A stretch of 32,000 nt of DNA, from NCBI GenBank assembly GCA_964469905.1, contig CAYXZW010000004.1, positions 44,173 through 76,172 of the forward strand, given 5' to 3'. Positions 5,067 through 16,268 of the stretch are shown here, piece after piece; position 1 is the stretch's first letter, and each line of letters begins with the position of its first letter. Under the pieces are notes generated by a model. That model saw nothing but the letters and a program-made list of their open reading frames with translations, ran no database searches and was not told where the DNA came from. Both the position numbers and the translations under genes were made by a program. The stretch is from an uncultured Smithella sp. (GTDB lineage: Bacteria > Desulfobacterota > Syntrophia > Syntrophales > Smithellaceae).

Positions 5067-5520
5067 TCAAATTCTACTGCTAAAGTAATGGACAATCTTC
5101 ACCATGGCTAATGTATTTTGACCACAGTAATTCAGCATATGCTTGCGCAATGTTTCCTTACGTTTTGTTGCTGTATCTGGATGTATCGCTTCAAAAAACG
5201 CTGCCTGTGCTTCCATTCCATCGTGTACCTCTTCAAGTTATTCATAATTAAATTCAGGCGAAACTGTTTGCAGTACTGCCTTAATAGACCATGAACCATT
5301 CATATCTTGATGGTAATAGCAGCTACGTAGAAGTGGAAGCAGGTCACATATTCTACCCTGAATTGCTGTCAAAGCACCCCCTATATTGGAAAGAGCTCAA
5401 TTAAAACACCAATAACCATTCTTTCAAAATGACCATAGGTGATAATTGACCCTTCTTTTTCAAGGTCAAGGATCATTTGTTCTGCATGGTTCCGCACAGC
5501 AAGCCCCTTTAACAGTTTTT
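5067..5520 (-). pseudogene. decayed 3' portion of a second DUF2779 gene
   Basis: Minus-strand translation across at least two frames gives AVRNHAEQMILDLEKEGSIITYGHFERMVIGVLIELFPI*, then ALSNIGGALTAIQGRICDLLPLLRSCYYHQDMNGSWSIKAVLQTVSPEFNYE*LEEVHDGMEAQAAFFEAIHPDTATKRKETLRKHMLNYCGQNTLAMVKIVHYFSSRI*. This is colinear with the C-terminus of the intact copy at 2772..4238 (EFMAKLNEVMGAKGSVIAYNAGFEIGILKRC...YYHPKQDGSCSLKKVLPVL...KLLEEYCGLDTMGMVDIVEKLY). There is an in-frame TAA at 5238-5240 and a frameshift near 5385-5395. The remnant may extend up to about 5600, into the tail of ORF 5521..5973. Confidence 0.75.
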
Positions 5521-5973
5521 TCAAGAAAACCTATAGAAAACAAATGCCAGCAATTCCATTTCCCTAATTTCAAAGAGAATCTTAAACGGGAGATGCATAA
5601 TCATCTGTTTTTCGGTTTCAGACACTGACAGAAGAGTTAAATCGACCAATGTCTTCAATTGTTTTATTTCTTCGGCAAGCTTCTTGGTCCCTTTGAAAAC
5701 ACTCTGTCGATAATAATCAGCCTTCTCCCAGATCTGTTTATTGCCCGCATTGCCGATGTTGATCGTGTGCTCCAGAAGAGCAATATTGCCAATCTTCCAT
5801 ATCCAGTCGTCATAGTTCTCATTTGTCGACTTCAGCCAGACATCCTTCAATTCCTGATAATTCACGGCGTTCTGTGAAAATACGTGTTCACGCTGTATCT
5901 GGATGCCGTCATCCTCATCTATGTCATAGTCGAAAATCCTACTCAATTCTTCATCTGAGTAGTCATAAACCAT
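5521..5973 (-). CDS. DUF1524 (His-Me finger/HNH-like) C-terminal half of a GmrSD-family type IV restriction enzyme; likely part of an interrupted gene
   Basis: REHVFSQ ... IGNIALLEHTINIGNAGNK matches the DUF1524 EH..(P/S)Q ... GN..LL....N....N pattern. The ORF is in the same reading frame as 6022..7662 and is separated from it by a single TGA. Confidence 0.7.
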   Translation of the reverse strand: MVYDYSDEELSRIFDYDIDEDDGIQIQREHVFSQNAVNYQELKDVWLKSTNENYDDWIWKIGNIALLEHTINIGNAGNKQIWEKADYYRQSVFKGTKKLAEEIKQLKTLVDLTLLSVSETEKQMIMHLPFKILFEIREMELLAFVFYRFS

Positions 5974-6021
5974 GCGTTCATATTCATAGAGGACATACTT
6001 GAAGTTTCCATACCCCAGATC

Positions 6022-7662
6022 TCAGACAAGATATTCCTTTTTATATCCAAAGGAAAAATTGCGGACATGGTCGACAATTTTATCCACATAGTTAGATTCC
6101 CAGACGAAGCTACCGACCGGACGCTTTCCGATAGTCCAGATTGCGAGCTCGTTTTCTTCAATAAGATTGAAGATCGTTACCGGCTTCGAGGCAAACTGAC
6201 TGAATTCGTCAATTTGTCCAATGCACATTCCATATCGGTCTTTCAAAAATCCGAATAGGTCCCTATATGGTCTAATCAGCTCAATGTCCCGTGAAACCCC
6301 AGATTCAGCTGTCAGTGCAGCAAGCTTGGCATTTGCTCCCTTGATCCGGTCAATCTCCTCAAACAGATTGATGGCGGCCATCTCCCCCGTCTTGGGAATA
6401 CTCTGTCCCGGTTCAAGCATGGACATGGTTTGTGGAGGTGTATTTTTATATATCTCAACCAGCAGCGCCTTGCTAAATACCGACAGCCCCAGGATGCTGA
6501 AAAGCTGTTTGAATGGATACCAGGTCTTGGCAATATAAGGGTCTTTGTGACTATAAGCCAATTCACAGGGGACTGCCGTGTCAGCAACATAGCGCAGGAA
6601 AGATATGATGCTACGGATCTTGTCCGCCAGATATGGGATAATGACTTTGATGTTGTCATTCTGCAGCACCAACGTTTCGCGGAACACCTTATTAATGGAC
6701 TCGTAAATCCTGTCTTCGCCGGATTCGTACCAAACCTCTACCTTGCGTTTATTGTCTCCTTCATCATTGAGCAGGTCGTTCAGGTACTTCCGGTAGAAGC
6801 CTTCCCGGAGCAGCATGAAGTTTAGAATCCGTATGACGTCGGCCTCGGCGCTCTCCGGCTTAGGATAGATTTTGAGCGAACAGAGAAGCTCTATGGTTTC
6901 AAAAAGTCCGCCGAACATGTTATCAATATCACGGTCCAGGTCAATATCCTTTTCAACCTTCTGTGCGTAGAACATCAGGGTGCTCTTGAGCTTTTCCGTA
7001 TTGGTCAATCGCTTGCCCCGATCGGTTTGAGAAACGAACAGGGTTCCCGCCAGTTCTAGGTTATCCTCGACCAATATCTGTACGACTTGAAGATTCTGCT
7101 GAACAAACCGCTTTAAGTCGTCCCGGCGCGGAAAATCCGCCAGCCGGCGGCGGAAATAGTCGTAAGTTACCCTGATGCGACGATTGCTTTTCGTCTTCGG
7201 CTCTATCGCTGTGCCACTAACAAGATGCAGGAAATACTCGTGGTCCACCTTGCCGGGGATCAGTTTGGGAATAGCGGCATTGAAGATATGCGACACGATG
7301 GCGGCATCCTGAAAGGCGAGGAGAAAGAGAAAAAAGGTTATGGTGCGCTGCTGGCCATCGATGACAAAATAGAAGTCGTTGCCTGTGTCCAACTGCGCCA
7401 GCAGCTCGTGGCGCAGGATGTCCTGATTTACATATTCATCCAGCTGGGCATAACTGACCTTGGCAAGATAGATGCTACCCAACAAGTAGGGCAGGTATTC
7501 CGCTTCTTCAATGGCAAATACCAAGTCGTTCCAGAAGTCCTCGATGTGCTTCTCCTCCCAGGAGAATGGACGCTGGTACTTGGGCATCAACAACTGCCTT
7601 TTGCCGCCGAACATTTCCGTATAGTAGTTACAGATGGAAACCTTGATCTTGTCAGTGGTCAA
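6022..7662 (-). CDS. DUF262 (ParB-like nuclease/NTPase) N-terminal part of a GmrSD-family type IV restriction enzyme
   Basis: MPKYQRPFSWEEKHIEDFWNDL and VIDGQQRTITFFLFL (DGQQR) are DUF262 hallmarks. The TTG start at 7660-7662 overlaps the TGA (7659-7661) of the upstream TIR gene. The ORF ends at TGA 6022-6024, and the same frame stays open beyond it into 5521..5973. Confidence 0.8.
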   Translation of the reverse strand: MTTDKIKVSICNYYTEMFGGKRQLLMPKYQRPFSWEEKHIEDFWNDLVFAIEEAEYLPYLLGSIYLAKVSYAQLDEYVNQDILRHELLAQLDTGNDFYFVIDGQQRTITFFLFLLAFQDAAIVSHIFNAAIPKLIPGKVDHEYFLHLVSGTAIEPKTKSNRRIRVTYDYFRRRLADFPRRDDLKRFVQQNLQVVQILVEDNLELAGTLFVSQTDRGKRLTNTEKLKSTLMFYAQKVEKDIDLDRDIDNMFGGLFETIELLCSLKIYPKPESAEADVIRILNFMLLREGFYRKYLNDLLNDEGDNKRKVEVWYESGEDRIYESINKVFRETLVLQNDNIKVIIPYLADKIRSIISFLRYVADTAVPCELAYSHKDPYIAKTWYPFKQLFSILGLSVFSKALLVEIYKNTPPQTMSMLEPGQSIPKTGEMAAINLFEEIDRIKGANAKLAALTAESGVSRDIELIRPYRDLFGFLKDRYGMCIGQIDEFSQFASKPVTIFNLIEENELAIWTIGKRPVGSFVWESNYVDKIVDHVRNFSFGYKKEYLV

Positions 7663-10625
7663 GCCGGCATAACCTCACTGCTTTCTTCTTTTGTTTTTTT
7701 CTCAGAATTATCTGCAAGTAATTCATCTATCAATGGAGTTACTTGCTCTTTCATGATTTTGAACTTTTCCTTAAAATACGACTGCATCTCATATTGGTTT
7801 TTTTCATCTATTACCTTCTTTTCCGTTCCAGCAGTATTCCTAAACTGTGCATCAGCATACTGCCACCACGGCCACCCCCTTTCTGATCTTCCAGATAAAA
7901 ATATTTTTTTTATTTTCTCACTGAAATCGGTGTTTTGAGCATTTATTGTGCTGTCGCATGATTGGATACCATAGAAGAGATTATCAAAATCATTAGTTCC
8001 AGCCTGAAGTGTAAGACAATATGTGCTTTTATCCTGGTCTGGTTTTTTCCAGGCTTCTTTATAGAAAGATATCCCCGCATACTTTTCCATGGTTTTTGCA
8101 TTGGTATACATCTTCCATCCATCTTTCTCAGGGAAAAGCGTTTTTAGTGTATTGGTCAGCCCATCTATCAAGTTTTGAAGTTCTCCAATGAAATGAACCT
8201 GGTAGTTGTGATCATTGCACAGTTTCTTAATCAGGGGCTCCATTTTTAAAATATTTTTGGCTAGCCCTTCCATTGTCTCATCAAAAAATATACACCTTTC
8301 ACCTGCAATAAGAGGCCAGGAACCATCGTTAATCCAATCAAAGTTACTTCCCCCTGTTTTTGTAAAGTTAGCCAAATTTGCACTCCAGATTCCGTAAAGA
8401 TTCCCCGTGTCATGACTTTTTCCGAATGCGAATTCGCAGGCGCCGCATAACATCCCCAGCTGATGCTCGAATTTCGGGTCAATTTGCTCGTTTTGCTTCA
8501 GGGAGACAACGAGGCCATCAAAGCATGGTTCCGTCGGAATAATCTGCAGCATGACGGGGGGGAGGTCATCGTCGTTTGCGCCACTTTTGCGCCATGTCGA
8601 ATGCCAGATTGAAATGGGAGCCATTTTTTCCAGTGAAATGGCTTTATTTTCAACTTTCCATACTCCTGTTTCACTCACAAGAAACTGCTCCAATACTTTG
8701 CATGCATGCGTCACAAGGTTTTTAACCGCTTCCAGATGGTTTCTGAGCATAATAAATTCAGGCAGGATCTTGTCAATTTCTTCGGTTACGAAAGATTCGT
8801 AACGAGCAAGCCATTCTGCTATACTTTTTCCTTCAAAATCATCAGATACTGTTATATTCTTAGGTATTGTGTATAGGCCACGATTTTTAATAAACGCCTT
8901 GATAATCTCCGTTTCAAAATCAGGCGGCTCTAAGTTCTTGAACATAACTGCCATATTTTTTTTCGTGCATGTAAATGCAGCAACTGCATCAAATTCTTCA
9001 ACCTTAAAAGTTAAATAAGTTTCTAACGTAATCCACTCACAATCAAGATTCCTGGACATAAACGAAAATGTCATCCCTGCTTCACTTGCCTTTTGATTGC
9101 ATTTTTCAGTAATCATTCTGAGATAATTATAGATATAAAGACCGTTATTCCAGGTTCTTCTTTCTTCCTCCATTACAAGGGGATTTGCTAATTGCATTCT
9201 TGGGATGTCATTACAGGCATCACCAATTATCACTTCCAAATCCTTCAATTTTTTAAATTTCCCCACACAATATTCAATGAAACCGTCAAGGTCATCTTGC
9301 CAGTCAAATGAAATATCGGCAATTCCACTATTGCGCCATTTTCCATCAAGTAGTTGCCACCACGGCCAATATGGTTCCGGCTTTTCCGTCTGTTCCATTA
9401 TTTTTATTGCCCTATCTGTAATGCGTGACTCCCAATCACCTAATGTCATCCAACTTTCATATTTGAGGATGCCGATATACAAGCCGTTCAAAAAATGTCC
9501 TCCGCTTTCCAGGGTGAAAGACAACAAGCCGCGCCCCCGGTAGTTATCTGACTGCGGCTGCCAATCCTTTTTGAAGACGTTAAGTTTGCCATACTGCCTA
9601 AAACCGCTTAATCGTTCCCCCTCCGGAGCGCCTACCATCCAGTCTTCTGTTTCGGGAAAGATTTCTTTCAGCTTTTCTTCCAGCCGACTGATGGTTTTCT
9701 CCACCTTTCCTGCATAGTCAATCCAGTCGAGCAGTCCGGGGAAAATTTTATCAGAAAAAGCTTCAATATTATCTTTGAATAAATCAAAACATTTTTCCAA
9801 GGAATGGCCAGCAAGTTTGTTTGTTAATGGTTCTTCCTTCAATAAAGCGACAAAATTCCAGCGCCTTGCCCCGGGAATCCTCTTGACATCTTTAAATGTT
9901 TCGCTTTTTTCTTTTTGAAAAAATGTTACAAAGGGATATTTGAGGGGATCTCCATCTGATGCTGAATCTGCATATATATCTATTGTTTTTTTCTGTGTGC
10001 TAAATTTGAATATCAGATCAACACCTGTGGCGCCTATTCTAATGGGAAAAAAGAGGACAACATCTTGAGTCGCTCCCTTCTGAATAGAAAACATGGCATT
10101 GATGGTATCCAGACGCAGCCTATATTTGCCGTTTAAATTGTTTGCCAATAGTCGAGCAGCTCCTGATATGCCGCCGTCCATATCTCCTTTATCAACGGAT
10201 TCCTTGTTCAGCATGACAAGAATGGCATCGACAGCCGCTTGAAAACGCTCGCTGCCTTCCCCTTCTAAAGCATCGACCCATTGCTTATCAGAAAGATGGT
10301 ATTTGAACGCCTCTTTTAACGGTGAATCTTCAATGCGTATCGGAAGCAACATCTTTTTATCGCTATTGGCAATATCCACTTCTTTAGCGCACTCCGCCGA
10401 TCCCATAGATGCCTCAGAAACAAGCAGGGCAAGAATGTCCGTTTCGCTAATTCCTGCCATGATGGCGTTAGCCCACTGTTGGCCTGCTCCGATATCTCGC
10501 GGGGCAATCCAACAGGAAATACCTGCGCCCTCAAGCAGATTGCATAAATACTGGGCATCATTCTTATTCTTTTCTGTTCTTGTTGTATAACTAATAAATA
10601 CTTCCTTTTTTTCTGTTCTAGCCAT
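7659..10625 (-). CDS. TIR-domain protein with a large internally repeated C-terminal region (TIR-A-B-A'-B'-B'')
   Basis: Residues ~8-125: VFISYTTRTEKN...CWIAPRDIGAGQQW...LLVSEASMGSAECAKEVDIA...LLPIRIED is a bacterial TIR_2-type pattern. The C-terminus holds three related ~150-aa modules (approx nt 9216-9683, 8211-8708, 7716-8168). Shared landmarks are LFPE(T/K)(E/D)(D/G)W, L(Y/F)(I/Y)GI and (Y/G)WPWWQ. GGAGG lies 4 nt before the ATG at 10625. Confidence 0.85.
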   Translation of the reverse strand: MARTEKKEVFISYTTRTEKNKNDAQYLCNLLEGAGISCWIAPRDIGAGQQWANAIMAGISETDILALLVSEASMGSAECAKEVDIANSDKKMLLPIRIEDSPLKEAFKYHLSDKQWVDALEGEGSERFQAAVDAILVMLNKESVDKGDMDGGISGAARLLANNLNGKYRLRLDTINAMFSIQKGATQDVVLFFPIRIGATGVDLIFKFSTQKKTIDIYADSASDGDPLKYPFVTFFQKEKSETFKDVKRIPGARRWNFVALLKEEPLTNKLAGHSLEKCFDLFKDNIEAFSDKIFPGLLDWIDYAGKVEKTISRLEEKLKEIFPETEDWMVGAPEGERLSGFRQYGKLNVFKKDWQPQSDNYRGRGLLSFTLESGGHFLNGLYIGILKYESWMTLGDWESRITDRAIKIMEQTEKPEPYWPWWQLLDGKWRNSGIADISFDWQDDLDGFIEYCVGKFKKLKDLEVIIGDACNDIPRMQLANPLVMEEERRTWNNGLYIYNYLRMITEKCNQKASEAGMTFSFMSRNLDCEWITLETYLTFKVEEFDAVAAFTCTKKNMAVMFKNLEPPDFETEIIKAFIKNRGLYTIPKNITVSDDFEGKSIAEWLARYESFVTEEIDKILPEFIMLRNHLEAVKNLVTHACKVLEQFLVSETGVWKVENKAISLEKMAPISIWHSTWRKSGANDDDLPPVMLQIIPTEPCFDGLVVSLKQNEQIDPKFEHQLGMLCGACEFAFGKSHDTGNLYGIWSANLANFTKTGGSNFDWINDGSWPLIAGERCIFFDETMEGLAKNILKMEPLIKKLCNDHNYQVHFIGELQNLIDGLTNTLKTLFPEKDGWKMYTNAKTMEKYAGISFYKEAWKKPDQDKSTYCLTLQAGTNDFDNLFYGIQSCDSTINAQNTDFSEKIKKIFLSGRSERGWPWWQYADAQFRNTAGTEKKVIDEKNQYEMQSYFKEKFKIMKEQVTPLIDELLADNSEKKTKEESSEVMPA

Positions 10626-10643
10626 AGTGCCTCCGTCAACAGA

Positions 10644-12680
10644 TTAGTTCTGCTTTTCACTATCGTTCATGAATTGTCTTTGCTTCTGCCATCCGGGACT
10701 GGCCAGAAGGTTCCTGATATTTTCAAGCATGTCCTTGTCCTTTTGCTTCTCGCTTTCAGAGAGTTGTGCATAAGGGATGATCATTGGATGGATTTTTTTC
10801 TCGTTGTTTCTTACCAGACCATAACGCCACCCATCCATAAGTCTTTCAGCCATCCACCGCCTGTGTTCCATCTCTGACAGCATTTCAAAAAAAACATGGT
10901 TGTGAGCAATATTAGCTAGAGGAGTCAAATCTTGACCATCACAACCGATAGCGCGAAGCTTGACCGAAAGATGATCAGCCGGCCAGCGATTCGCGTCCTT
11001 CATGACTTCGTTGAGTTCCTCCCATACTACCAACGAAATATTATCTCTCTTTTTCTGGGGATAATGCATCGGGTAGGCTGCATCAAGCAAGGATGCATTC
11101 AGCCGGAATAACTGTGTCTGTTCCGTAATGGTGAGCTCATGGAAAAGTTTGCTCCTTATTGAAGACGTCCGAGTTGCCAGCTTTTCAAACCTCGGTGCCA
11201 AAACCGTGCCGCGTTTCTTAAAGATTCGATCATAGAGACTTGGCATCTTCAGGATTCGATTGAGAGAGGCTATGGGATCTTGTTCCTTGAAGTCCGTCAA
11301 TTCGGGGATGTCCTTTAACACGGCATGAATAAAATCAAGAGGTTTGCTTTCTTTGAAGTCGTTTTCATTGAAAGGAATCTGAGTATTGACGTATGCTGAG
11401 TGGATTGTTCGCGCCAACTCATCTGTTACCTCGTCCATTAGGACCTGATAACCACAAGCAGCATCATAAATATTGAAACCCTGTATATTCAGGTCTAATG
11501 TATATTGCGATTCGTTTCCCTCCATGAGTTCAGACAAAGAAGATCTCATGCAGACTACAATCGGTATGTCGTCTGAGGGAAGAAGAGATCGAATCCGCAT
11601 AGCAAGAGAAACACCAGTCGAATCATCATCTAACGCAATATATACAGCAGCCGGTTTTGAACAGGTAATCTCTTCTATCGACAGAAGGCATTCGGGATCA
11701 TGATCGATAAAACGGATATTAACACCAGGGACAATAAAAGATGGAGGTTTCGCCCCATCACCATAAACCGCAAGAAACTTCTCAGAGTTTGTTTTGATAT
11801 TTCGATCAACGACGTTAATTTCCAGTCGCTGCCACTCGGCGTAATGCCCGATTCGTGCAGCCTGTTTAATGATGTGCTCTCCCATCCTGCTGAATCCAAT
11901 TATGACAAAAGAGATGGTTTTATCTGACAGTCCTTGTTTTCTGGCATACAGGTCAGGAGGGTATTTTTCCAAGATAACACGGGCAGATGTTTCGTAGATG
12001 TTGAAGATACTGGCATCGAATTCGTTATAGGTTCTTGCAAAGAGATCATGGTGGGCGAAAATTGATCGCAAACTTGAACTGGTAATATGGGTATAACAGC
12101 GCAAATTAACCGTCGAATCATTTCTGTAAGCGGTTTCTGCCAGCAGCTTTCCCTCACTTGCTATTTTAATATTGGCATTGTCACTCCCTGTGACGGCAAA
12201 AAGATATTTTGCTTTTGCAGTATTTGCTTCATCCAGCATGACCTGGTCCGAAGCGTCACCTATCAAAACTAATACACCACGTTCCCTGCAGCCCGGAATG
12301 TCGGGATGATCTTTCTTGGACTCTATAACAACCACACGGTATCCTTTTACTAGAAAACTGCTCATCAGGCGCATTCCCTTGTCTCCGAGACCGCTGATGA
12401 CCACATGGCCAGAAGTCTGCTGAAGGCGGATCAGTTCGTATTTTTCCCGAATTTGCTTCCAGAATGCCTGAATAGAACCTAGTGCTGTTCCCCCCGCCCC
12501 TAAAAACTTGGCAATAGTAAACAAGAGCTTTTGCTGCTCTGGTTTACCGACAATAATTAATATAACGCCAGTAATAACCAGAATTACAGCCGTCACCAAC
12601 AGACCGATGACCAACCACCAGGAGTATTTACGATTCCAGCGCCCAAAGGCAGTAAATGAAGAGACACTATGTTTTTTCAT
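10644..12680 (-). CDS. membrane-anchored protein with two TrkA_N/RCK-type Rossmann domains and a C-terminal RyR domain
   Basis: N-terminal TM helix WWLVIGLLVTAVILVITGVILIIVG. VVISGLGDKGMRLMSSFLVKGYRVVVIE carries GxGxxG plus an acidic beta2 end. A second copy is FVIIGFSRMGEHIIKQAARIG...INVVDRN. The C-terminus MEHRRWMAERLMDGWRYGLVRNNEKKIHPMIIPYAQLSESEKQKDKDMLENI matches the RyR-domain consensus (E..W......GW.YG......K.HP.L.PY..L.E.EK..D). The ATG at 12680 is preceded by AGGGG and lies 4 nt after the upstream TAA; the track start at 12704 is a TTG. Confidence 0.8.
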   Translation of the reverse strand: MKKHSVSSFTAFGRWNRKYSWWLVIGLLVTAVILVITGVILIIVGKPEQQKLLFTIAKFLGAGGTALGSIQAFWKQIREKYELIRLQQTSGHVVISGLGDKGMRLMSSFLVKGYRVVVIESKKDHPDIPGCRERGVLVLIGDASDQVMLDEANTAKAKYLFAVTGSDNANIKIASEGKLLAETAYRNDSTVNLRCYTHITSSSLRSIFAHHDLFARTYNEFDASIFNIYETSARVILEKYPPDLYARKQGLSDKTISFVIIGFSRMGEHIIKQAARIGHYAEWQRLEINVVDRNIKTNSEKFLAVYGDGAKPPSFIVPGVNIRFIDHDPECLLSIEEITCSKPAAVYIALDDDSTGVSLAMRIRSLLPSDDIPIVVCMRSSLSELMEGNESQYTLDLNIQGFNIYDAACGYQVLMDEVTDELARTIHSAYVNTQIPFNENDFKESKPLDFIHAVLKDIPELTDFKEQDPIASLNRILKMPSLYDRIFKKRGTVLAPRFEKLATRTSSIRSKLFHELTITEQTQLFRLNASLLDAAYPMHYPQKKRDNISLVVWEELNEVMKDANRWPADHLSVKLRAIGCDGQDLTPLANIAHNHVFFEMLSEMEHRRWMAERLMDGWRYGLVRNNEKKIHPMIIPYAQLSESEKQKDKDMLENIRNLLASPGWQKQRQFMNDSEKQN

Positions 12681-12684
12681 AAAG

Positions 12685-14493
12685 TTACCCCTGTGGAACC
12701 TCAATAGGACGTTCGCGGTGCATCAATAGCCAGTCCCCATTTTCGGCGATGGCTTCCTTACCGAGCTTGAGTAATACATCACGGCTCTGTAATTCATTGT
12801 CAGGATTTGACTCCAGGAGCTTAAGCGCCTTATTAAAGAGCGCCCCCATCCGTATGTATTGTTTCGCTTGTGCAGAAAAGAGCATTTTATCATTGTAATA
12901 ATTTATGGCACCGGCAATGACGAATGAGGCAGGTGTGGCAACTTGCATCCAATTGTCTAACAAATCGCCACCAAGCTTAAACTTGTGAATAATAAGCATT
13001 GCGGGTGTTAAAACAAACATAGCAATGCTGAAGAATACTTTAGAAATTAAGTTTAATCTTTCCATTTTTTTCTTCTGTTTAATGGCAGCATTTCTATAGT
13101 AGTGTGATTGTCCTTGCACCCAGTATGTTTTAACTGCTTGAAGAGCTTCTATATGGATGGGCTTGTTACAATCGTTGACAAAACCAGTTAAAAGATTCCA
13201 ATTCCTGATGGCTTGACGAATCCAATCAAGCTCACTCTGTTGCTTGCCCAGATAGTCAGAAGCGACAGATTCGCGCAATCCAGCCAGTCTCCAAAAAAAT
13301 TGAACGCGTAATCCTTCTGCAAGCGCCCGGTAATCGAGGAATTTTTCTTGATTTTTGCGTTGCTTTGACCAGTAGTAAACACCATAGGCGCACGCCATTG
13401 GTGCAAGATATCCTAAAATGACAATCAGTGCCGAAGAAATGCTCAGGTACATTTCAAAAAAGAAGACTATAAGCGGTACAAAACATGCGATGGCATATAG
13501 GGCGGCATAGGTATCCTTTTGAAAATGGATTGCCATAGCATCCGCAATTGCAAATCGCTCAAGCAATTCCTTCTGTGGTCCGGAAAGATCCTCCTTTGTG
13601 AACTTACTATCTGTATGCTGCCCGGGAGATGACGTTGGAATCGACATAAGCCATTCCACCGACTGCTTTGATTGTGTCGCAAGTTCATTGGCAAGCGTGA
13701 TCGCATCGCAGTTAAATGCATCAATACATGTAAAGACTCGCTGCTGCTCTTCTTCTCGAGATCCCGTGTTGTCTTCATTGAGTGGATATAGAATGTTTAC
13801 TGCAAATTGATTAAATGACGGGAATGTATCGTGCGACAGGAATTGCTGAAAAAAGCCTGTATCAGGCCTTATGGATCCATTTTCCGATTTGCGACGAGTT
13901 ACAATATGATAGACAGGACCGGTCTGGATGGGATTAAATATGATATCCTCGTTGTCAGCCCTTGTCGTATCGCCCGATAACTGAAGTTCTACGATGTCTG
14001 CTGTACCACCGAGTTTCTCATTGAGAATACCATCCCACAAGGCAATCAGAATCTGGCAATGCTCAACCATGAACTGGCCTGCTGCGAAATACTGTCGATC
14101 ACGGGCAGGTCCGTAGTCCTTGATTGAATTAATGGTGTTTCCTTGAACGATGGGAATTACAAATGATGAAAATGCTTTGGAAAGAAGCTTTGTAAAATTT
14201 TCTTTTGATGAACTGGATTCAAAGTCTCTTTCGTATTCATCTTGGGGGAGCGGCAACGGGACAATAAGTTGCATACTATTCTCGATAGCTACTTCCGCAG
14301 CAATACGGTCGGCACCTTCTGCAAGAGAGGATATTAATGAGAGGGGCGTAAATGGATACTTAGCTTTAAGATCAGCAAAAATAGATTGTACCCGCCTCTT
14401 TAACTCCTGATAATCTTCTTCGTAAATGTCACGATGCCCTGTGACACCTATCATAATGGGTACAGACGCCATTGATCTGCCTTTAATATTCAT
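12685..14493 (-). CDS. SLOG-domain (YpsA/DprA/LOG-like) protein fused to a 4-TM region ending in a SLATT-like 2TM module
   Basis: The N-terminus IGVTGHRD ... SSLAEGADRIAAEVA ... LIVPLPLPQDEYERDF ... ILIALWDG...LGGTADIVE follows the SLOG/YpsA strand-loop pattern. TM pair 1 is YAIACFVPLIVFFFEMYLSISSALIVILGYLAPMACAYGVYYW. The distal part is YYRNAAIKQKKKMERLNLISKVFFSIAMFVLTPAMLII...VATPASFVIAGAINYY...AQAKQYIRMGALFNKA, i.e. helix-TM-TM-helix as in SLATT/DUF4231. The alternative start MASV at 14472 is possible. Confidence 0.7.
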   Translation of the reverse strand: MNIKGRSMASVPIMIGVTGHRDIYEEDYQELKRRVQSIFADLKAKYPFTPLSLISSLAEGADRIAAEVAIENSMQLIVPLPLPQDEYERDFESSSSKENFTKLLSKAFSSFVIPIVQGNTINSIKDYGPARDRQYFAAGQFMVEHCQILIALWDGILNEKLGGTADIVELQLSGDTTRADNEDIIFNPIQTGPVYHIVTRRKSENGSIRPDTGFFQQFLSHDTFPSFNQFAVNILYPLNEDNTGSREEEQQRVFTCIDAFNCDAITLANELATQSKQSVEWLMSIPTSSPGQHTDSKFTKEDLSGPQKELLERFAIADAMAIHFQKDTYAALYAIACFVPLIVFFFEMYLSISSALIVILGYLAPMACAYGVYYWSKQRKNQEKFLDYRALAEGLRVQFFWRLAGLRESVASDYLGKQQSELDWIRQAIRNWNLLTGFVNDCNKPIHIEALQAVKTYWVQGQSHYYRNAAIKQKKKMERLNLISKVFFSIAMFVLTPAMLIIHKFKLGGDLLDNWMQVATPASFVIAGAINYYNDKMLFSAQAKQYIRMGALFNKALKLLESNPDNELQSRDVLLKLGKEAIAENGDWLLMHRERPIEVPQG

Positions 14494-14539: not shown

Positions 14540-15688
14540 TTATAGGAGTTTTTTGCTCGCGACACTCCAAATCAAATTTATAAATGTCACAAGTTGTTCG
14601 GCAACATATTTAGCGAACCCAAGATCAGCCAATTCCGCAAATGACACTCTTTTTATGGTTTCAAAGCCAAGGTTTCCTATTTCTTCAGAGTTCAATTCAT
14701 AATAATGATCTTTAACATGAAAACCACCTTTTGAATCAAGCGCCTCTGGGATCAGGTTAAATTCATCACAAGTCTGTCTGAACAGTGGATCTCTTTTTTC
14801 GCTTTCTGAATAGATTCCCCATACAACATTTATCCTATCCAGGCGTCTCTTGGTCAGAGAGACTGAAATGAAATATTTTTCATTGATCTGCCAATAGACC
14901 CAATTCTCTTCTGCAATATCATCATCCTGCGCAATTTCATTTGGGATGAATGGCAATCGAGCAGGATCCATTGTTTCTCTAACTAATTTTAAGAATTTAA
15001 TGCCCACATTGGGCCATGCATTATCTCCAACGACAACAGGGTCACTTTGAACTATAGTCCCTTTAAAACTAATGTTTGCTTCATCTATCTCACTCTTTAC
15101 CCTCGCCTCTAAGTCCTTTGCTCGGTCAATAGAAATGCAAAGATCCCTTGTTAGGTTATTTATTGTATCTCGTTCAATATCCGTTATTTGACCATCTTCA
15201 TACGCCATACGTAGAACTTTTAATAGTGCTTCCTCATTAGATCTGTTTTCAGATTCAGTTACTTTTGTCTCCTTTTTTTCTCGTTGGCTAAATAAATCAA
15301 CTTGTTCTTTAATCCTCTCAGCGACAGAATTAAGATGATCGACTTGACTGTCTAAAATATCAATAACGTTTGGCGTAGCTAAATGATATTTAAAAGCTCG
15401 TTCAGGTGCAATGTCTTCAATCCGAACCGGAATTAATAGGCATTTATTTTGTGCAGAGAGCGTTAACTCTTTTAGGACATTTTCGCTATTCTGTGAATTT
15501 GAAGAGAATACAAGAATTACAATGGGCACATTATCGATAGCGTCGACAATTTTTTCCGCCCAATTCCCAAGGCCGATGTTATCTTTATCTCGCCAGCAGC
15601 GGACTCCATTTTTTTCAAGCAAATCCCTTAAAGTTACAACAAATTTCTCATCCTGCCTCGAGTAGCTTAAAAATACATCATAGCTCAT
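14540..15688 (-). CDS. TIR-domain protein (ThsB-like architecture: TIR plus coiled coil plus a distinct C-terminal domain)
   Basis: YDVFLSYSRQDEKFVVTLRDLLEKNGVRCWRDKDNIGLGNW...VILVFSSNSQNSENVLKELTLSA...LIPVRIEDIAPERAFKYHL is a clear TIR pattern. It is paralogous to the TIR of 7659..10625, which carries LLPIRIEDSPLKEAFKYHL. AGGGGA precedes the ATG at 15688. Confidence 0.85.
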   Translation of the reverse strand: MSYDVFLSYSRQDEKFVVTLRDLLEKNGVRCWRDKDNIGLGNWAEKIVDAIDNVPIVILVFSSNSQNSENVLKELTLSAQNKCLLIPVRIEDIAPERAFKYHLATPNVIDILDSQVDHLNSVAERIKEQVDLFSQREKKETKVTESENRSNEEALLKVLRMAYEDGQITDIERDTINNLTRDLCISIDRAKDLEARVKSEIDEANISFKGTIVQSDPVVVGDNAWPNVGIKFLKLVRETMDPARLPFIPNEIAQDDDIAEENWVYWQINEKYFISVSLTKRRLDRINVVWGIYSESEKRDPLFRQTCDEFNLIPEALDSKGGFHVKDHYYELNSEEIGNLGFETIKRVSFAELADLGFAKYVAEQLVTFINLIWSVASKKLL

Positions 15689-15734: not shown

Positions 15735-16268
15735 TTATACTCTAATTCCGCGACTTGCAAGGGTTCTTTCCGGATTAAATATTCCCTCTTTATTCCTGAC
15801 AAGAGCAAAAACAATTGGGGATAGGACAAGGAGAAATGCAAAGCCTGTGCGCCGAGAAGAAGCCCTGTTTGAACCTGTTTTACCAGAAGGTGTCACAAAG
15901 TTAAGTAGATTAATGATAAATAATACGGAAAGAGAAATCTTTGTGACTAACGCAAATAAAATACCTAGAGGATTTTGATTATCTTGAATGGTTCTGATAA
16001 CAATCCATAAAAAAAGAACAGATTCAACAATGGCAATAAATATGAAACCTATTTTATGGTTATCCTTTGATGCAAATGAAAAAACATACATGAGAATTAT
16101 AGGAACCAGACCCAGTAAAAAGACTAGCCCCAAATCATTATAATCCCGAAAGACGGTGATCTTCTGTTTGAAGCCCATAACAACTCCGATTACAACAAAG
16201 ACAACCCACGCAATCAATGTGTAGATGTTAAATATCCAGTCTGTCCAGACATACACATTAGCTTCCAT
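15735..16268 (-). CDS. polytopic membrane protein of unknown function, first gene of the TIR operon
   Basis: 177 aa with about 5 hydrophobic helices. The RBS AAGGAAAGGA precedes the ATG at 16268. Only 46 nt separate its stop from the TIR gene start. A 309-nt non-coding leader lies upstream. Confidence 0.6.
   Translation of the reverse strand: MEANVYVWTDWIFNIYTLIAWVVFVVIGVVMGFKQKITVFRDYNDLGLVFLLGLVPIILMYVFSFASKDNHKIGFIFIAIVESVLFLWIVIRTIQDNQNPLGILFALVTKISLSVLFIINLLNFVTPSGKTGSNRASSRRTGFAFLLVLSPIVFALVRNKEGIFNPERTLASRGIRV

Follow-up and report, generated by a model that had tools for sequence, protein, structure and literature searches.

The minus-strand gene at positions 10644..12680 of a 32,000-nucleotide (nt) stretch from an uncultured Smithella sp. 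(assembly GCA_964469905.1; contig CAYXZW010000004.1, positions 44,173 to 76,172; at its full length called the window here) probably encodes the signal-receiving effector of a Thoeris-like TIR signaling system, a membrane protein that would be gated by the signal and would perturb the membrane. This reading is built upon the domain architecture of the protein, the conservation of its RyR pocket, its fold, its missing P-loop, and its linkage to TIR genes, all of which were observed here. The open reading frame (ORF) runs from 10644 to 12704 on the minus strand. Translation from the ATG at 12680, which lies 4 nt past the stop codon of a SLOG-SLATT gene and has a purine-rich GAGG...GGGG stretch upstream, yields a protein of 678 amino acids (aa), and the coordinates of the original prediction, which was made from the letters of the sequence, hold. 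The features of the gene are as follows.

10644..12680, minus strand: the whole gene, encoding a transmembrane (TM) hairpin, two RCK/TrkA_N domains, and a split RyR-like module (from the ORF, Pfam, an AlphaFold2 [AF2] model, and Foldseek)
12546..12620, minus strand: TM1, residues 21 to 45 (WWLVIGLLVTAVILVITGVILIIVG; from Kyte-Doolittle hydropathy and an AF2 helix)
12459..12527, minus strand: second helix, residues 52 to 74, weakly hydrophobic and presumed to be the returning TM helix
11991..12410, minus strand: RCK/TrkA_N Rossmann domain 1, residues ~91 to 230 (from Pfam TrkA_N and family conservation)
11469..11924, minus strand: Rossmann domain 2, residues ~253 to 404 (from the AF2 model, Foldseek, and family conservation)
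11379..11435, minus strand: first helix of the RyR-like module, residues ~416 to 434 (ELARTIHSAYV; from conservation and a match to alpha1 of phage proteins)
11046..11378, minus strand: helical insertion, residues 435 to 545 (from the family alignment and AF2 helices)
10647..11045, minus strand: RyR domain core, residues 546 to 678 (from Pfam RyR, matches to RyR2 and 3nrt, and a phage alignment)

The C-terminal RyR domain named in the original prediction is supported by both Pfam and phmmer. Pfam RyR (PF02026) matches residues 604 to 673 with an E value of 1.9e-17 and 63.7 bits, which passes the gathering threshold of 27.4, and the last 138 aa match all four repeats of RyR2 (phmmer, E = 9e-30). 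The C-terminal region also matches “putative ryanodine receptor” structures from B. thetaiotaomicron (3nrt, E ~4e-9). The module begins upstream of this core with a helix in which A423 and H427 are nearly invariant and which matches alpha1 of phage RyR proteins, where the equivalent stretch reads IARAAHSA; internal half-repeat similarity is seen within the module. After this first helix, the module is split by an insertion of ~118 aa (between alignment anchors 434 and 553) that is helical in the AF2 model, with a predicted local distance difference test score (pLDDT) of 75 to 95, and that matched no family in the Pfam scan. In the family alignment of 66 sequences, which comprises 28 close members (the target included) and 38 distant ones, the insertion is present in 21/28 close relatives and 0/38 distant relatives; it is absent in locus L008 (loci of relatives carry L numbers).

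Bacterial RyR homologs had been described in the original prediction as lacking an established function, a statement that is out of date for the phage homologs (PMC13232231; 10.64898/2026.06.04.730250). Phage RyR-domain proteins bind 2'-, 3'-, and canonical cyclic ADP-ribose (2'cADPR, 3'cADPR, and cADPR) at nanomolar to submicromolar levels or cleave them (PMC13232231; 10.64898/2026.06.04.730250). Six of eight phage RyR homologs bind 2'/3'cADPR-type signals, mostly as sponges, and most do not cleave them (PMC13232231). The key residues of RyDEP (mycobacteriophage DyoEdafos gp78) are H75, W78, H100, and D117 (PMC13232231), while RyR Tad (Pectobacterium phage CB1 gp68) binds 3'cADPR with a dissociation constant of 43 nM and 2'cADPR and cADPR at <1 µM, its ligand contacts being H129/W132, K147/H154, and K170/D171 (10.64898/2026.06.04.730250). 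We mapped the pocket via the RyR protein of Pectobacterium phage Nepra, which is nearly identical to CB1 gp68 and has the same numbering; the target aligns with it without gaps at 43% identity (E = 5e-14), giving these correspondences.

H129 of RyR Tad (Nepra): H606 of the target
W132 of RyR Tad (Nepra): W609 of the target
K147 of RyR Tad (Nepra): R624 of the target (a conservative K-to-R change)
H154 of RyR Tad (Nepra): H631 of the target
K170 of RyR Tad (Nepra): K647 of the target
D171 of RyR Tad (Nepra): D648 of the target

All six phage ligand-contact positions are thus retained, five as identical residues and one as a K-to-R replacement, and the spacings from the pocket His (+3, +25, and +42) are the same as those of H75/W78/H100/D117 in RyDEP. 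As judged from the alignment, the pocket is conserved in the family, with the H kept in 63 of the 66 members, W in 62, K/R in 57, the second H in 42, K in 44, and D in 59. Because phage RyR proteins bind or cleave cADPR isomers and the six contact residues are present here, the RyR domain is a likelier sensor of a TIR product than the Rossmann domains are.

The two Rossmann domains of the original prediction were both recovered. The check it proposed, by profile and by structure search, identified TrkA_N and RyR through Pfam and the second Rossmann domain through the AF2 model and Foldseek. Pfam TrkA_N (PF02254; E = 2.2e-17, 63.9 bits versus a cutoff of 23.8) covers only the first, which has G97-L-G99-D-K-G102, E120 at the end of beta2, a GDA motif, and D167..N170. 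Among the 66 sequences, G97 is kept in 66, G99 in 60, G102 in 64, and an acidic residue at 120 in 66; the above-threshold Pfam score, the GxGxxG motif, and the acidic end of beta2 place domain 1 in the TrkA_N/RCK family. Domain 2 had no match in the Pfam scan of the 678-aa protein. The AF2 model, built from 66 homologs (pLDDT, 89.4; predicted template modeling score [pTM], 0.84), has two successive beta-alpha-beta domains, the second with strands at 255 to 261, 285 to 292, 320 to 326, 374 to 378, and 399 to 403 in a beta-alpha-beta pattern. Its motifs are G262-F-S264-R-M-G267 and D292, the middle Gly of GxGxxG being S264 in the target; G262 is found in 62/66 sequences, G at 264 in 50/66, G267 in 65/66, and D292 in 60/66. 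The family thus keeps GxGxxG and an acidic residue ending beta2 (Asp in domain 2) in both Rossmann domains.

Foldseek aligned 400 to 540 columns across tandem-RCK proteins (GsuK and TrkA), ranking GsuK first (4gx0/4gx1/4gx5, E = 4e-9), followed by TrkA, CASTOR, and BK gating rings; RyR3 Repeat12 was also among the matches (E = 2e-4). The match of the monomer model to the GsuK, TrkA, and BK rings is clear, and the Rossmann domains, as modeled, look like a gating-ring scaffold of the GsuK/TrkA RCK type. An NCBIfam scan of the target gave only sub-threshold TrkA matches. The retained nucleotide-site motifs (GxGxxG and E120) may provide a secondary NAD(H), ADP, or ATP input.

The original prediction had gone further and placed the sensing of NAD+ depletion, or of some product derived from NAD, in the tandem NAD(H)-type Rossmann module; in a full form of this model, these domains would be the main sensor and the RyR domain an accessory. 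The intact GxGxxG of domain 1 and the acidic end of beta2 in 66/66 sequences fit this proposal, as do the consumption of NAD+ by TIR enzymes and the activation of the closest fold, GsuK, by NAD+ and ADP at the RCK site (PMC3510474). However, nucleotide sites of the RCK type are a generic feature, shared by thousands of K+ transport regulators that have no link to TIR, and the second Rossmann domain of the target has lost its middle Gly (S264). It is the RyR domain that distinguishes this family and travels with TIR genes, that is also found on AAA ATPases and small stand-alone proteins in the same neighborhoods, and whose relatives have been shown experimentally to bind TIR products. The pocket evidence points to the RyR domain instead, and we regard primary sensing by the Rossmann domains as decidedly unlikely.

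The partnership with TIR genes that was proposed for this gene recurs across phyla. Among the close relatives (44 to 88% identity; 12 loci in Desulfobacterota metagenome-assembled genomes [MAGs]), a TIR gene adjoins at 9/12 loci (the window, L001, L003, L004, L005, L008, L009/L010, L011-L013, and L014); the L002 locus ends at a contig end. Among distant relatives (23 to 30% identity), a TIR or TIR-WD40 gene adjoins at 6/7 sampled loci (L015, L016 from a Thermoplasmatota archaeon, L017, L018/L019, L020, and L021), and no adjoining TIR was seen at the distant loci L022-L024. We also searched an unselected sample of 80 metagenomic loci from the P-loop-bearing subfamily (flanks of up to 7 kb on each side), using a TIR hidden Markov model built from the partner TIRs. 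A TIR lies within the flanks of 24 of these 80 loci and of 9 of the 21 that have at least 3 kb on both sides. Of the 68 loci whose downstream flank is 700 bp or longer, 12 have a TIR ORF that starts within 400 bp downstream on the same strand. TIR density falls from 9.7 per 100 kb in the 2 kb nearest the RyR gene to 3.3 per 100 kb at 2 to 7 kb. No alternative partner stands out at the TIR-negative loci; among their 113 neighboring ORFs, even the commonest Pfam family was seen in no more than 5. The survey suggested in the original prediction, of TrkA_N-RyR genes beside TIR or SLOG genes, therefore gives a TIR at 9/12 close and 24/80 unselected loci, a link that is strong but not obligate.

A candidate catalytic Glu is kept in 45/52 partner TIRs, and many of them share an FISY...CWIAPRD...P[IL]R[IV]E signature, which suggests that one TIR clade may be coevolving with the RyR-channel family. 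Metagenomic TIR partners (L033-L112, e.g., L082:4278-4952 and L085:8774-9778) share HDVFISYS...RCWIAPRD..PG...IPLRIE, as does the long TIR of the window. The arrangement is that of Thoeris: a TIR gene with a candidate catalytic Glu lies adjacent to a putative effector gene and is conserved there across relatives. This recurring association supplies the functional context for a prokaryotic RyR domain that had been anticipated from this one locus.

Minimal pairs consisting of a TIR gene and a TrkA_N-RyR gene, without SLOG-SLATT, were found at L004, L005, L010, L011-L013, and L014, and those of L010-L014 sit among housekeeping genes (CTP synthase, ATP synthase, and peptidase M16) with no defense island. 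The case for the RyR protein as an effector, and more than an accessory, rests mainly on these two-gene cassettes. They also bear upon the possibility that the protein is a host-encoded damper, in which the RyR domain sequesters or hydrolyzes the TIR-made cADPR isomer, as the RyR domains of RyDEP and RyR Tad do, and so sets a threshold for, or switches off, the SLOG-SLATT effector, with the membrane-RCK part only localizing or regulating it. Self-limitation is a known principle among sensor-nucleases, as in the CARF domains of Csm6, and in the window, L001, L006, L007, and L008 the gene has as its partner SLOG-SLATT, which could plausibly be an effector itself. The positions of the RyDEP catalytic dyad (His and Asp) are present as H606 and D648 (PMC13232231). 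However, at least five independent loci hold only the TIR and TrkA_N-RyR genes with no other effector candidate visible, and a damper without an effector would be senseless there. A 540-residue membrane-RCK scaffold would furthermore be a large investment for a sponge, and most tested phage homologs with the same residues do not cleave (PMC13232231). We therefore consider a damper unlikely.

At the N terminus, TM1 reaches a Kyte-Doolittle 19-residue maximum of 3.08 and falls within a long helix (residues 8 to 44) of the AF2 model. The second helix has a Kyte-Doolittle value of ~1.0, falls within helix 47 to 87 of the model, contains the nearly invariant A57, and is homologous to the K-channel inner helix of relatives. 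In place of the single N-terminal TM anchor of the original prediction, we thus favor a two-helix hairpin made of TM1 and the weaker helix 52 to 74. The basic N terminus, and the need for the RCK and RyR domains to lie in the cytoplasm, would require the second helix to cross back; only a hairpin would hold these domains on the cytoplasmic side.

The loop from TM1 to the second helix consists of six residues (KPEQQK) and contains no P-loop. Within the alignment, this segment spans 12 residues in 27 of the 28 close relatives and 13 in the remaining one, whereas it spans 30 to 45 residues (mostly 36 to 41) in the 38 distant relatives. Most distant members carry a motif of the type D[IL]xYxTLQLFxLESGxxxGPxPWxLE between the helices, and this segment is a recognizable, degenerate K-channel pore helix and filter in which LESG replaces GYG. 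By the same comparison, the 28 close members, including the target, have lost the K-channel P-loop. The Pfam scan found no Ion_trans_2 match in the target, and no re-entrant P-loop with a T-V/I-G-Y/F-G filter, as in RCK-gated K+ channels, is present in the target or the 28 close relatives. Assignment to the K+ channels was rejected since the P-loop is absent. The target protein thus derives from a GsuK-like channel yet lacks the feature that defines a K+ channel.

The family is large. A word-indexed search found 87 clusters that share the TrkA_N-RyR architecture, and a profile run against 1.84 billion representatives gave 6,332 proteins with an E value of 1e-30 or lower; the best 150 matches all had E < 1e-180, and most covered nearly the whole profile. 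This size would suit an ordinary ligand-gated cation channel or transport regulator whose TIR neighbors reflect hitchhiking in defense islands or nonimmune NAD signaling, as would the labeling of relatives as “Kch” by JGI and the unselected loci, most of which have no visible TIR and have miscellaneous neighbors. However, the TIR density of 9.7 per 100 kb beside the gene is far above what we take to be a plausible genome average, and many of the TIR genes lie directly downstream on the same strand. The TIR link holds at 25% identity and in archaea, the two-gene cassettes lie outside defense islands, and the target, without a P-loop, cannot be a selective channel. An ordinary channel or regulator is accordingly very improbable.

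In the favored reading, infection would trigger the neighboring TIR protein, which would convert NAD+ to an ADP-ribose-derived signal, most likely a cADPR isomer. This signal would bind the C-terminal RyR domain, which has one repeat per chain and is probably dimeric, as in the phage proteins, and which would be carried on a GsuK/TrkA-like tandem-RCK ring, probably a tetramer. The ring would pass the change on to the two-helix membrane hairpin, and activation would result in a nonselective leak or membrane disruption, depolarization, and aborted infection. A selective channel would not be expected to open because the P-loop and filter are deleted in this subfamily. The SLOG-SLATT membrane protein of the window is probably a second, parallel receiver of the same signal. 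We infer the identity of the ligand, the oligomeric state, the effector role, and the action at the membrane from these comparisons: homology of the RyR pocket points to a product-binding domain, and the membrane hairpin suggests a toxic output. Membrane or ion-channel-type proteins are validated Thoeris effectors in types V, VII, and X, according to a recent preprint (10.64898/2025.12.03.692087).

A more specific version, in which the host RyR domain is the receptor for a TIR-made cADPR isomer and gates a K-channel-derived membrane protein that, in this Desulfobacterota subfamily, loss of the P-loop would have turned into a membrane-breaching suicide device, is offered tentatively, as we hold it to be somewhat doubtful in its full form. 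In such a receptor, the retained His/Asp dyad might also hydrolyze the ligand and so act as a built-in timer.

The direction of signaling could also be the reverse of that in the favored reading, with the membrane protein detecting a cue of infection (membrane potential, ion flux, or phage entry) and activating an NAD+-depleting TIR, whose ADPR product would bind the RyR domain as feedback. A membrane location suits the sensing of entry events, and there are bacterial TIRs that act as effectors by depleting NAD+ instead of making a signal (10.64898/2025.12.03.692087). The partner TIRs, however, carry large variable C-terminal regions or WD40 arrays, which are typical of ThsB-type sensor-TIRs, and wherever RyR and SLOG domains have been studied, they receive a ligand and belong to an effector or a sponge. 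An upstream sensor is thus scarcely credible.

Several observations weigh against a signal-gated membrane effector. The second membrane helix is only weakly hydrophobic, and what kind of pore could form in the absence of a P-loop is speculative. In the pocket, H631 and K647 are kept in only about two-thirds of the family, and the pocket residues do not tell a receptor from an enzyme, as phage sponges and glycosidases share them. No TIR was seen at the close loci L006 and L007, where SLOG-SLATT is present, and ~70% of the unselected distant loci have no TIR in their flanks, several of them with 7 kb on both sides. No PADLOC 2023 model matches the target. Finally, SLOG-SLATT is a second candidate effector in the window, so that the target need not be the killing component here.

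The target belongs to a tightly packed minus-strand array with the order TIR_2, SLOG-SLATT, target, TIR_2, and GmrSD_N, and its immediate neighbors (12685..14493 and 7659..10625) agree with its earlier placement between a SLOG-SLATT gene and a TIR gene. The other members of the array are as follows.

14540..15688, minus strand: TIR_2 protein of 382 aa (Pfam TIR_2, E = 4e-20), the second TIR, two genes upstream of the target
12685..14493, minus strand: SLOG-SLATT protein (SLOG plus four TM helices) of 602 aa, from Pfam matches of homologs; its stop codon is 4 nt before the target ATG
7659..10625, minus strand: TIR_2 protein of 988 aa (Pfam TIR_2, E = 1.5e-19), 18 nt downstream of the target, with a GGAGG ribosome-binding site
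6022..7662, minus strand: GmrSD_N (DUF262) gene (Pfam GmrSD_N, E = 6.5e-29), its start overlapping the TIR stop by 4 nt

The junctions (a 4-nt gap, an 18-nt gap, and a 4-nt overlap) have ribosome-binding sites, and we infer from this packing that the genes form an operon. A scan for promoters and terminators gave no more matches than shuffled sequence. The DNA itself was found only in metagenomic DNA runs (rock, sediment, and wastewater).

The 988-aa TIR protein, which has orthologs at the same position in L001 and L008, is the probable signal-producing partner. The TIR of the 382-aa protein is 33 to 36% identical to the two-gene-cassette TIRs of L004, L005, and L009. The product of 12685..14493 had no significant Pfam match, the only hit being a weak one to the YAcAr SLOG family (E = 0.055). 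Its full-length homologs (35 to 45% identity) match SLATT_1, SLATT_3, DUF4231, and YAcAr SLOG, and the homolog in L007 matches SLATT_1 above the cutoff; the “SLOG-SLATT” label is therefore acceptable. This protein belongs to a family of >4,000 clusters and co-occurs with relatives of the target in L001, L006, L007, and L008. The GmrSD_N gene is syntenic in L001 and L008 (75 to 79% identity) and is probably a separate, co-located defense gene. It is the DUF262 part of a GmrSD-type pair (window 5521-7662, minus strand), completed by a 150-aa downstream ORF and syntenic with the TIR/RyR array. The equivalents in L001 (8018-10156) and L008 (14958-17072) are single ORFs of ~700 aa, and the window copy appears to be interrupted. 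Upstream of the short TIR gene lies a gene for a 177-aa multipass membrane protein (window 15735-16268, minus strand), a homolog of which (44% identity) is found at the equivalent place in L003 (7128-7673); this protein may be one more part of the array.

RyR domains also occur in other contexts at the loci sampled. Large AAA-type ATPases that end in RyR are encoded in L015 (3977-6784, minus strand; 935 aa) and L022 (2955-5582, minus strand; 875 aa), head-to-head with the TrkA_N-RyR gene and, in L015, beside a TIR; they look like a second class of RyR-bearing candidate effectors. Stand-alone RyR proteins are encoded right after the channel-like gene in L018 (7886-8344, plus strand; 152 aa) and L027 (5951-6451, plus strand; 167 aa). 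The Arcobacter plasmid CP146529 has the parts of this architecture in separate genes, TM-TrkA_N in one and RyR alone in another, with a DUF4062 protein following where a TIR gene would be expected. L003 is a decaying copy of the locus, with SLOG-SLATT reduced to a 33-codon remnant (7895-7993) and the TIR gene downstream of the RyR gene (10279-11307) broken into two ORFs, one of 100 aa with the TIR and one of 214 aa for the C-terminal part. In L006, from a Trichlorobacter lovleyi MAG (5276-6433 and 11414-12412), the RyR gene has no visible TIR and is found with a split SLOG-SLATT gene, a WYL-WCX regulator, and a Cas_NE0113 protein, a member of a CRISPR-associated family that we take to be CARF-like.

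TIR signaling systems and their effectors are now being cataloged quickly. It was not until 2026 that RyR domains were connected with cADPR-type ligands, and this was for phage counterdefense proteins alone. Host RyR domains in TIR operons span bacterial phyla and at least one archaeal genome, fused to a channel-derived scaffold. If the favored reading is true, they would give Thoeris-like immunity a sensor domain and an effector class that are both new and would explain what the phage RyR sponges mimic. They would also offer a small, tractable bacterial test system for RyR Repeat12-type domains as cADPR receptors coupled to ion-channel gating, a question that has been open for animal ryanodine receptors for decades. 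In the more specific version above, they would further stand as a prokaryotic counterpart to the disputed animal link from cADPR to the ryanodine receptor and as a source from which it may have evolved.

Among known proteins, RyDEP and RyR Tad share with the target the same Pfam family (PF02026), the six contact positions, and a single RyR repeat per chain, which implies dimerization. However, those two are small, soluble phage proteins that remove the host signal by sequestration or cleavage, whereas the target is host encoded, lies within a TIR operon, carries a membrane hairpin and two RCK domains in the same chain, and has an RyR module split by the ~118-aa insertion. Its role would be the opposite of theirs, receipt of the signal versus its removal. 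The two papers on the phage RyR proteins do not discuss host-encoded RyR proteins (PMC13232231; 10.64898/2026.06.04.730250).

GsuK of Geobacter sulfurreducens, a multiligand-gated K+ channel activated by ADP and NAD+ (PMC3510474), is the best structural match (4gx0, 4gx1, 4gx2, and 4gx5; Foldseek E = 4e-9, up to 537 columns). Both proteins have two TM helices and two RCK domains per chain with a nucleotide-type Rossmann site, and their sources share a broad lineage (Desulfuromonadota/Desulfobacterota). In GsuK, however, a P-loop carries the K+ selectivity filter and an RyR domain is lacking, whereas the target has the six-residue loop and an RyR module. Animal ryanodine receptors (Repeat12; PDB 9l90 and 6uhb) have homologous repeats with shared pocket residues that are likewise attached to a cation-channel-type protein. 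They differ in having four repeats within a 5,000-residue protein and a channel core that is unrelated in detail to the target, and their link to cADPR has long been debated, direct cADPR binding being unproven.

Thoeris type X (ThsB plus ThsK) resembles the system described here in pairing a TIR gene with an ion-channel-derived membrane effector. Its defense has been validated for one system, and its signal is unknown, as stated in the preprint of Yirmiya et al. (10.64898/2025.12.03.692087). In the type X locus of Vibrio sp. JCM 19052, the one candidate effector inspected is a 208-aa Ion_trans_2-like protein between two ThsB_TIR genes, provisionally assigned as ThsK from this position. It has a weak Ion_trans_2 match (E = 0.001, below the cutoff) and a TLTYGG pore motif, and the domain scan found no TrkA_N/RCK or RyR domain in it. 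The TIRs of the type X locus are ThsB_TIR (PF08937), whereas those of the window are TIR_2. If the 208-aa ORF is ThsK, type X is a different family from the target. Five plasmid loci examined for the type X effector were type II (macro) or uninformative.

The two TIRs and the SLOG-4TM protein of the window match the configurations of type VII (TIR plus SLATT, with canonical cADPR), type III (several TIRs plus SLOG), and “SLOG and 4TM” in that preprint (10.64898/2025.12.03.692087). “SLOG and 4TM” is a predicted Thoeris effector there, with two systems assayed, neither of which was defensive in E. coli (10.64898/2025.12.03.692087). The available descriptions of these three configurations contain no TrkA_N-RyR partner (10.64898/2025.12.03.692087). 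In full-text searches, no paper was found that linked a host RyR or TrkA protein to Thoeris or to TIR; of the 29 predicted configurations of the Sorek preprint, which were available in part, one may be the present system. With its TrkA_N-RyR protein, the system described here is distinct from the validated Thoeris types examined.

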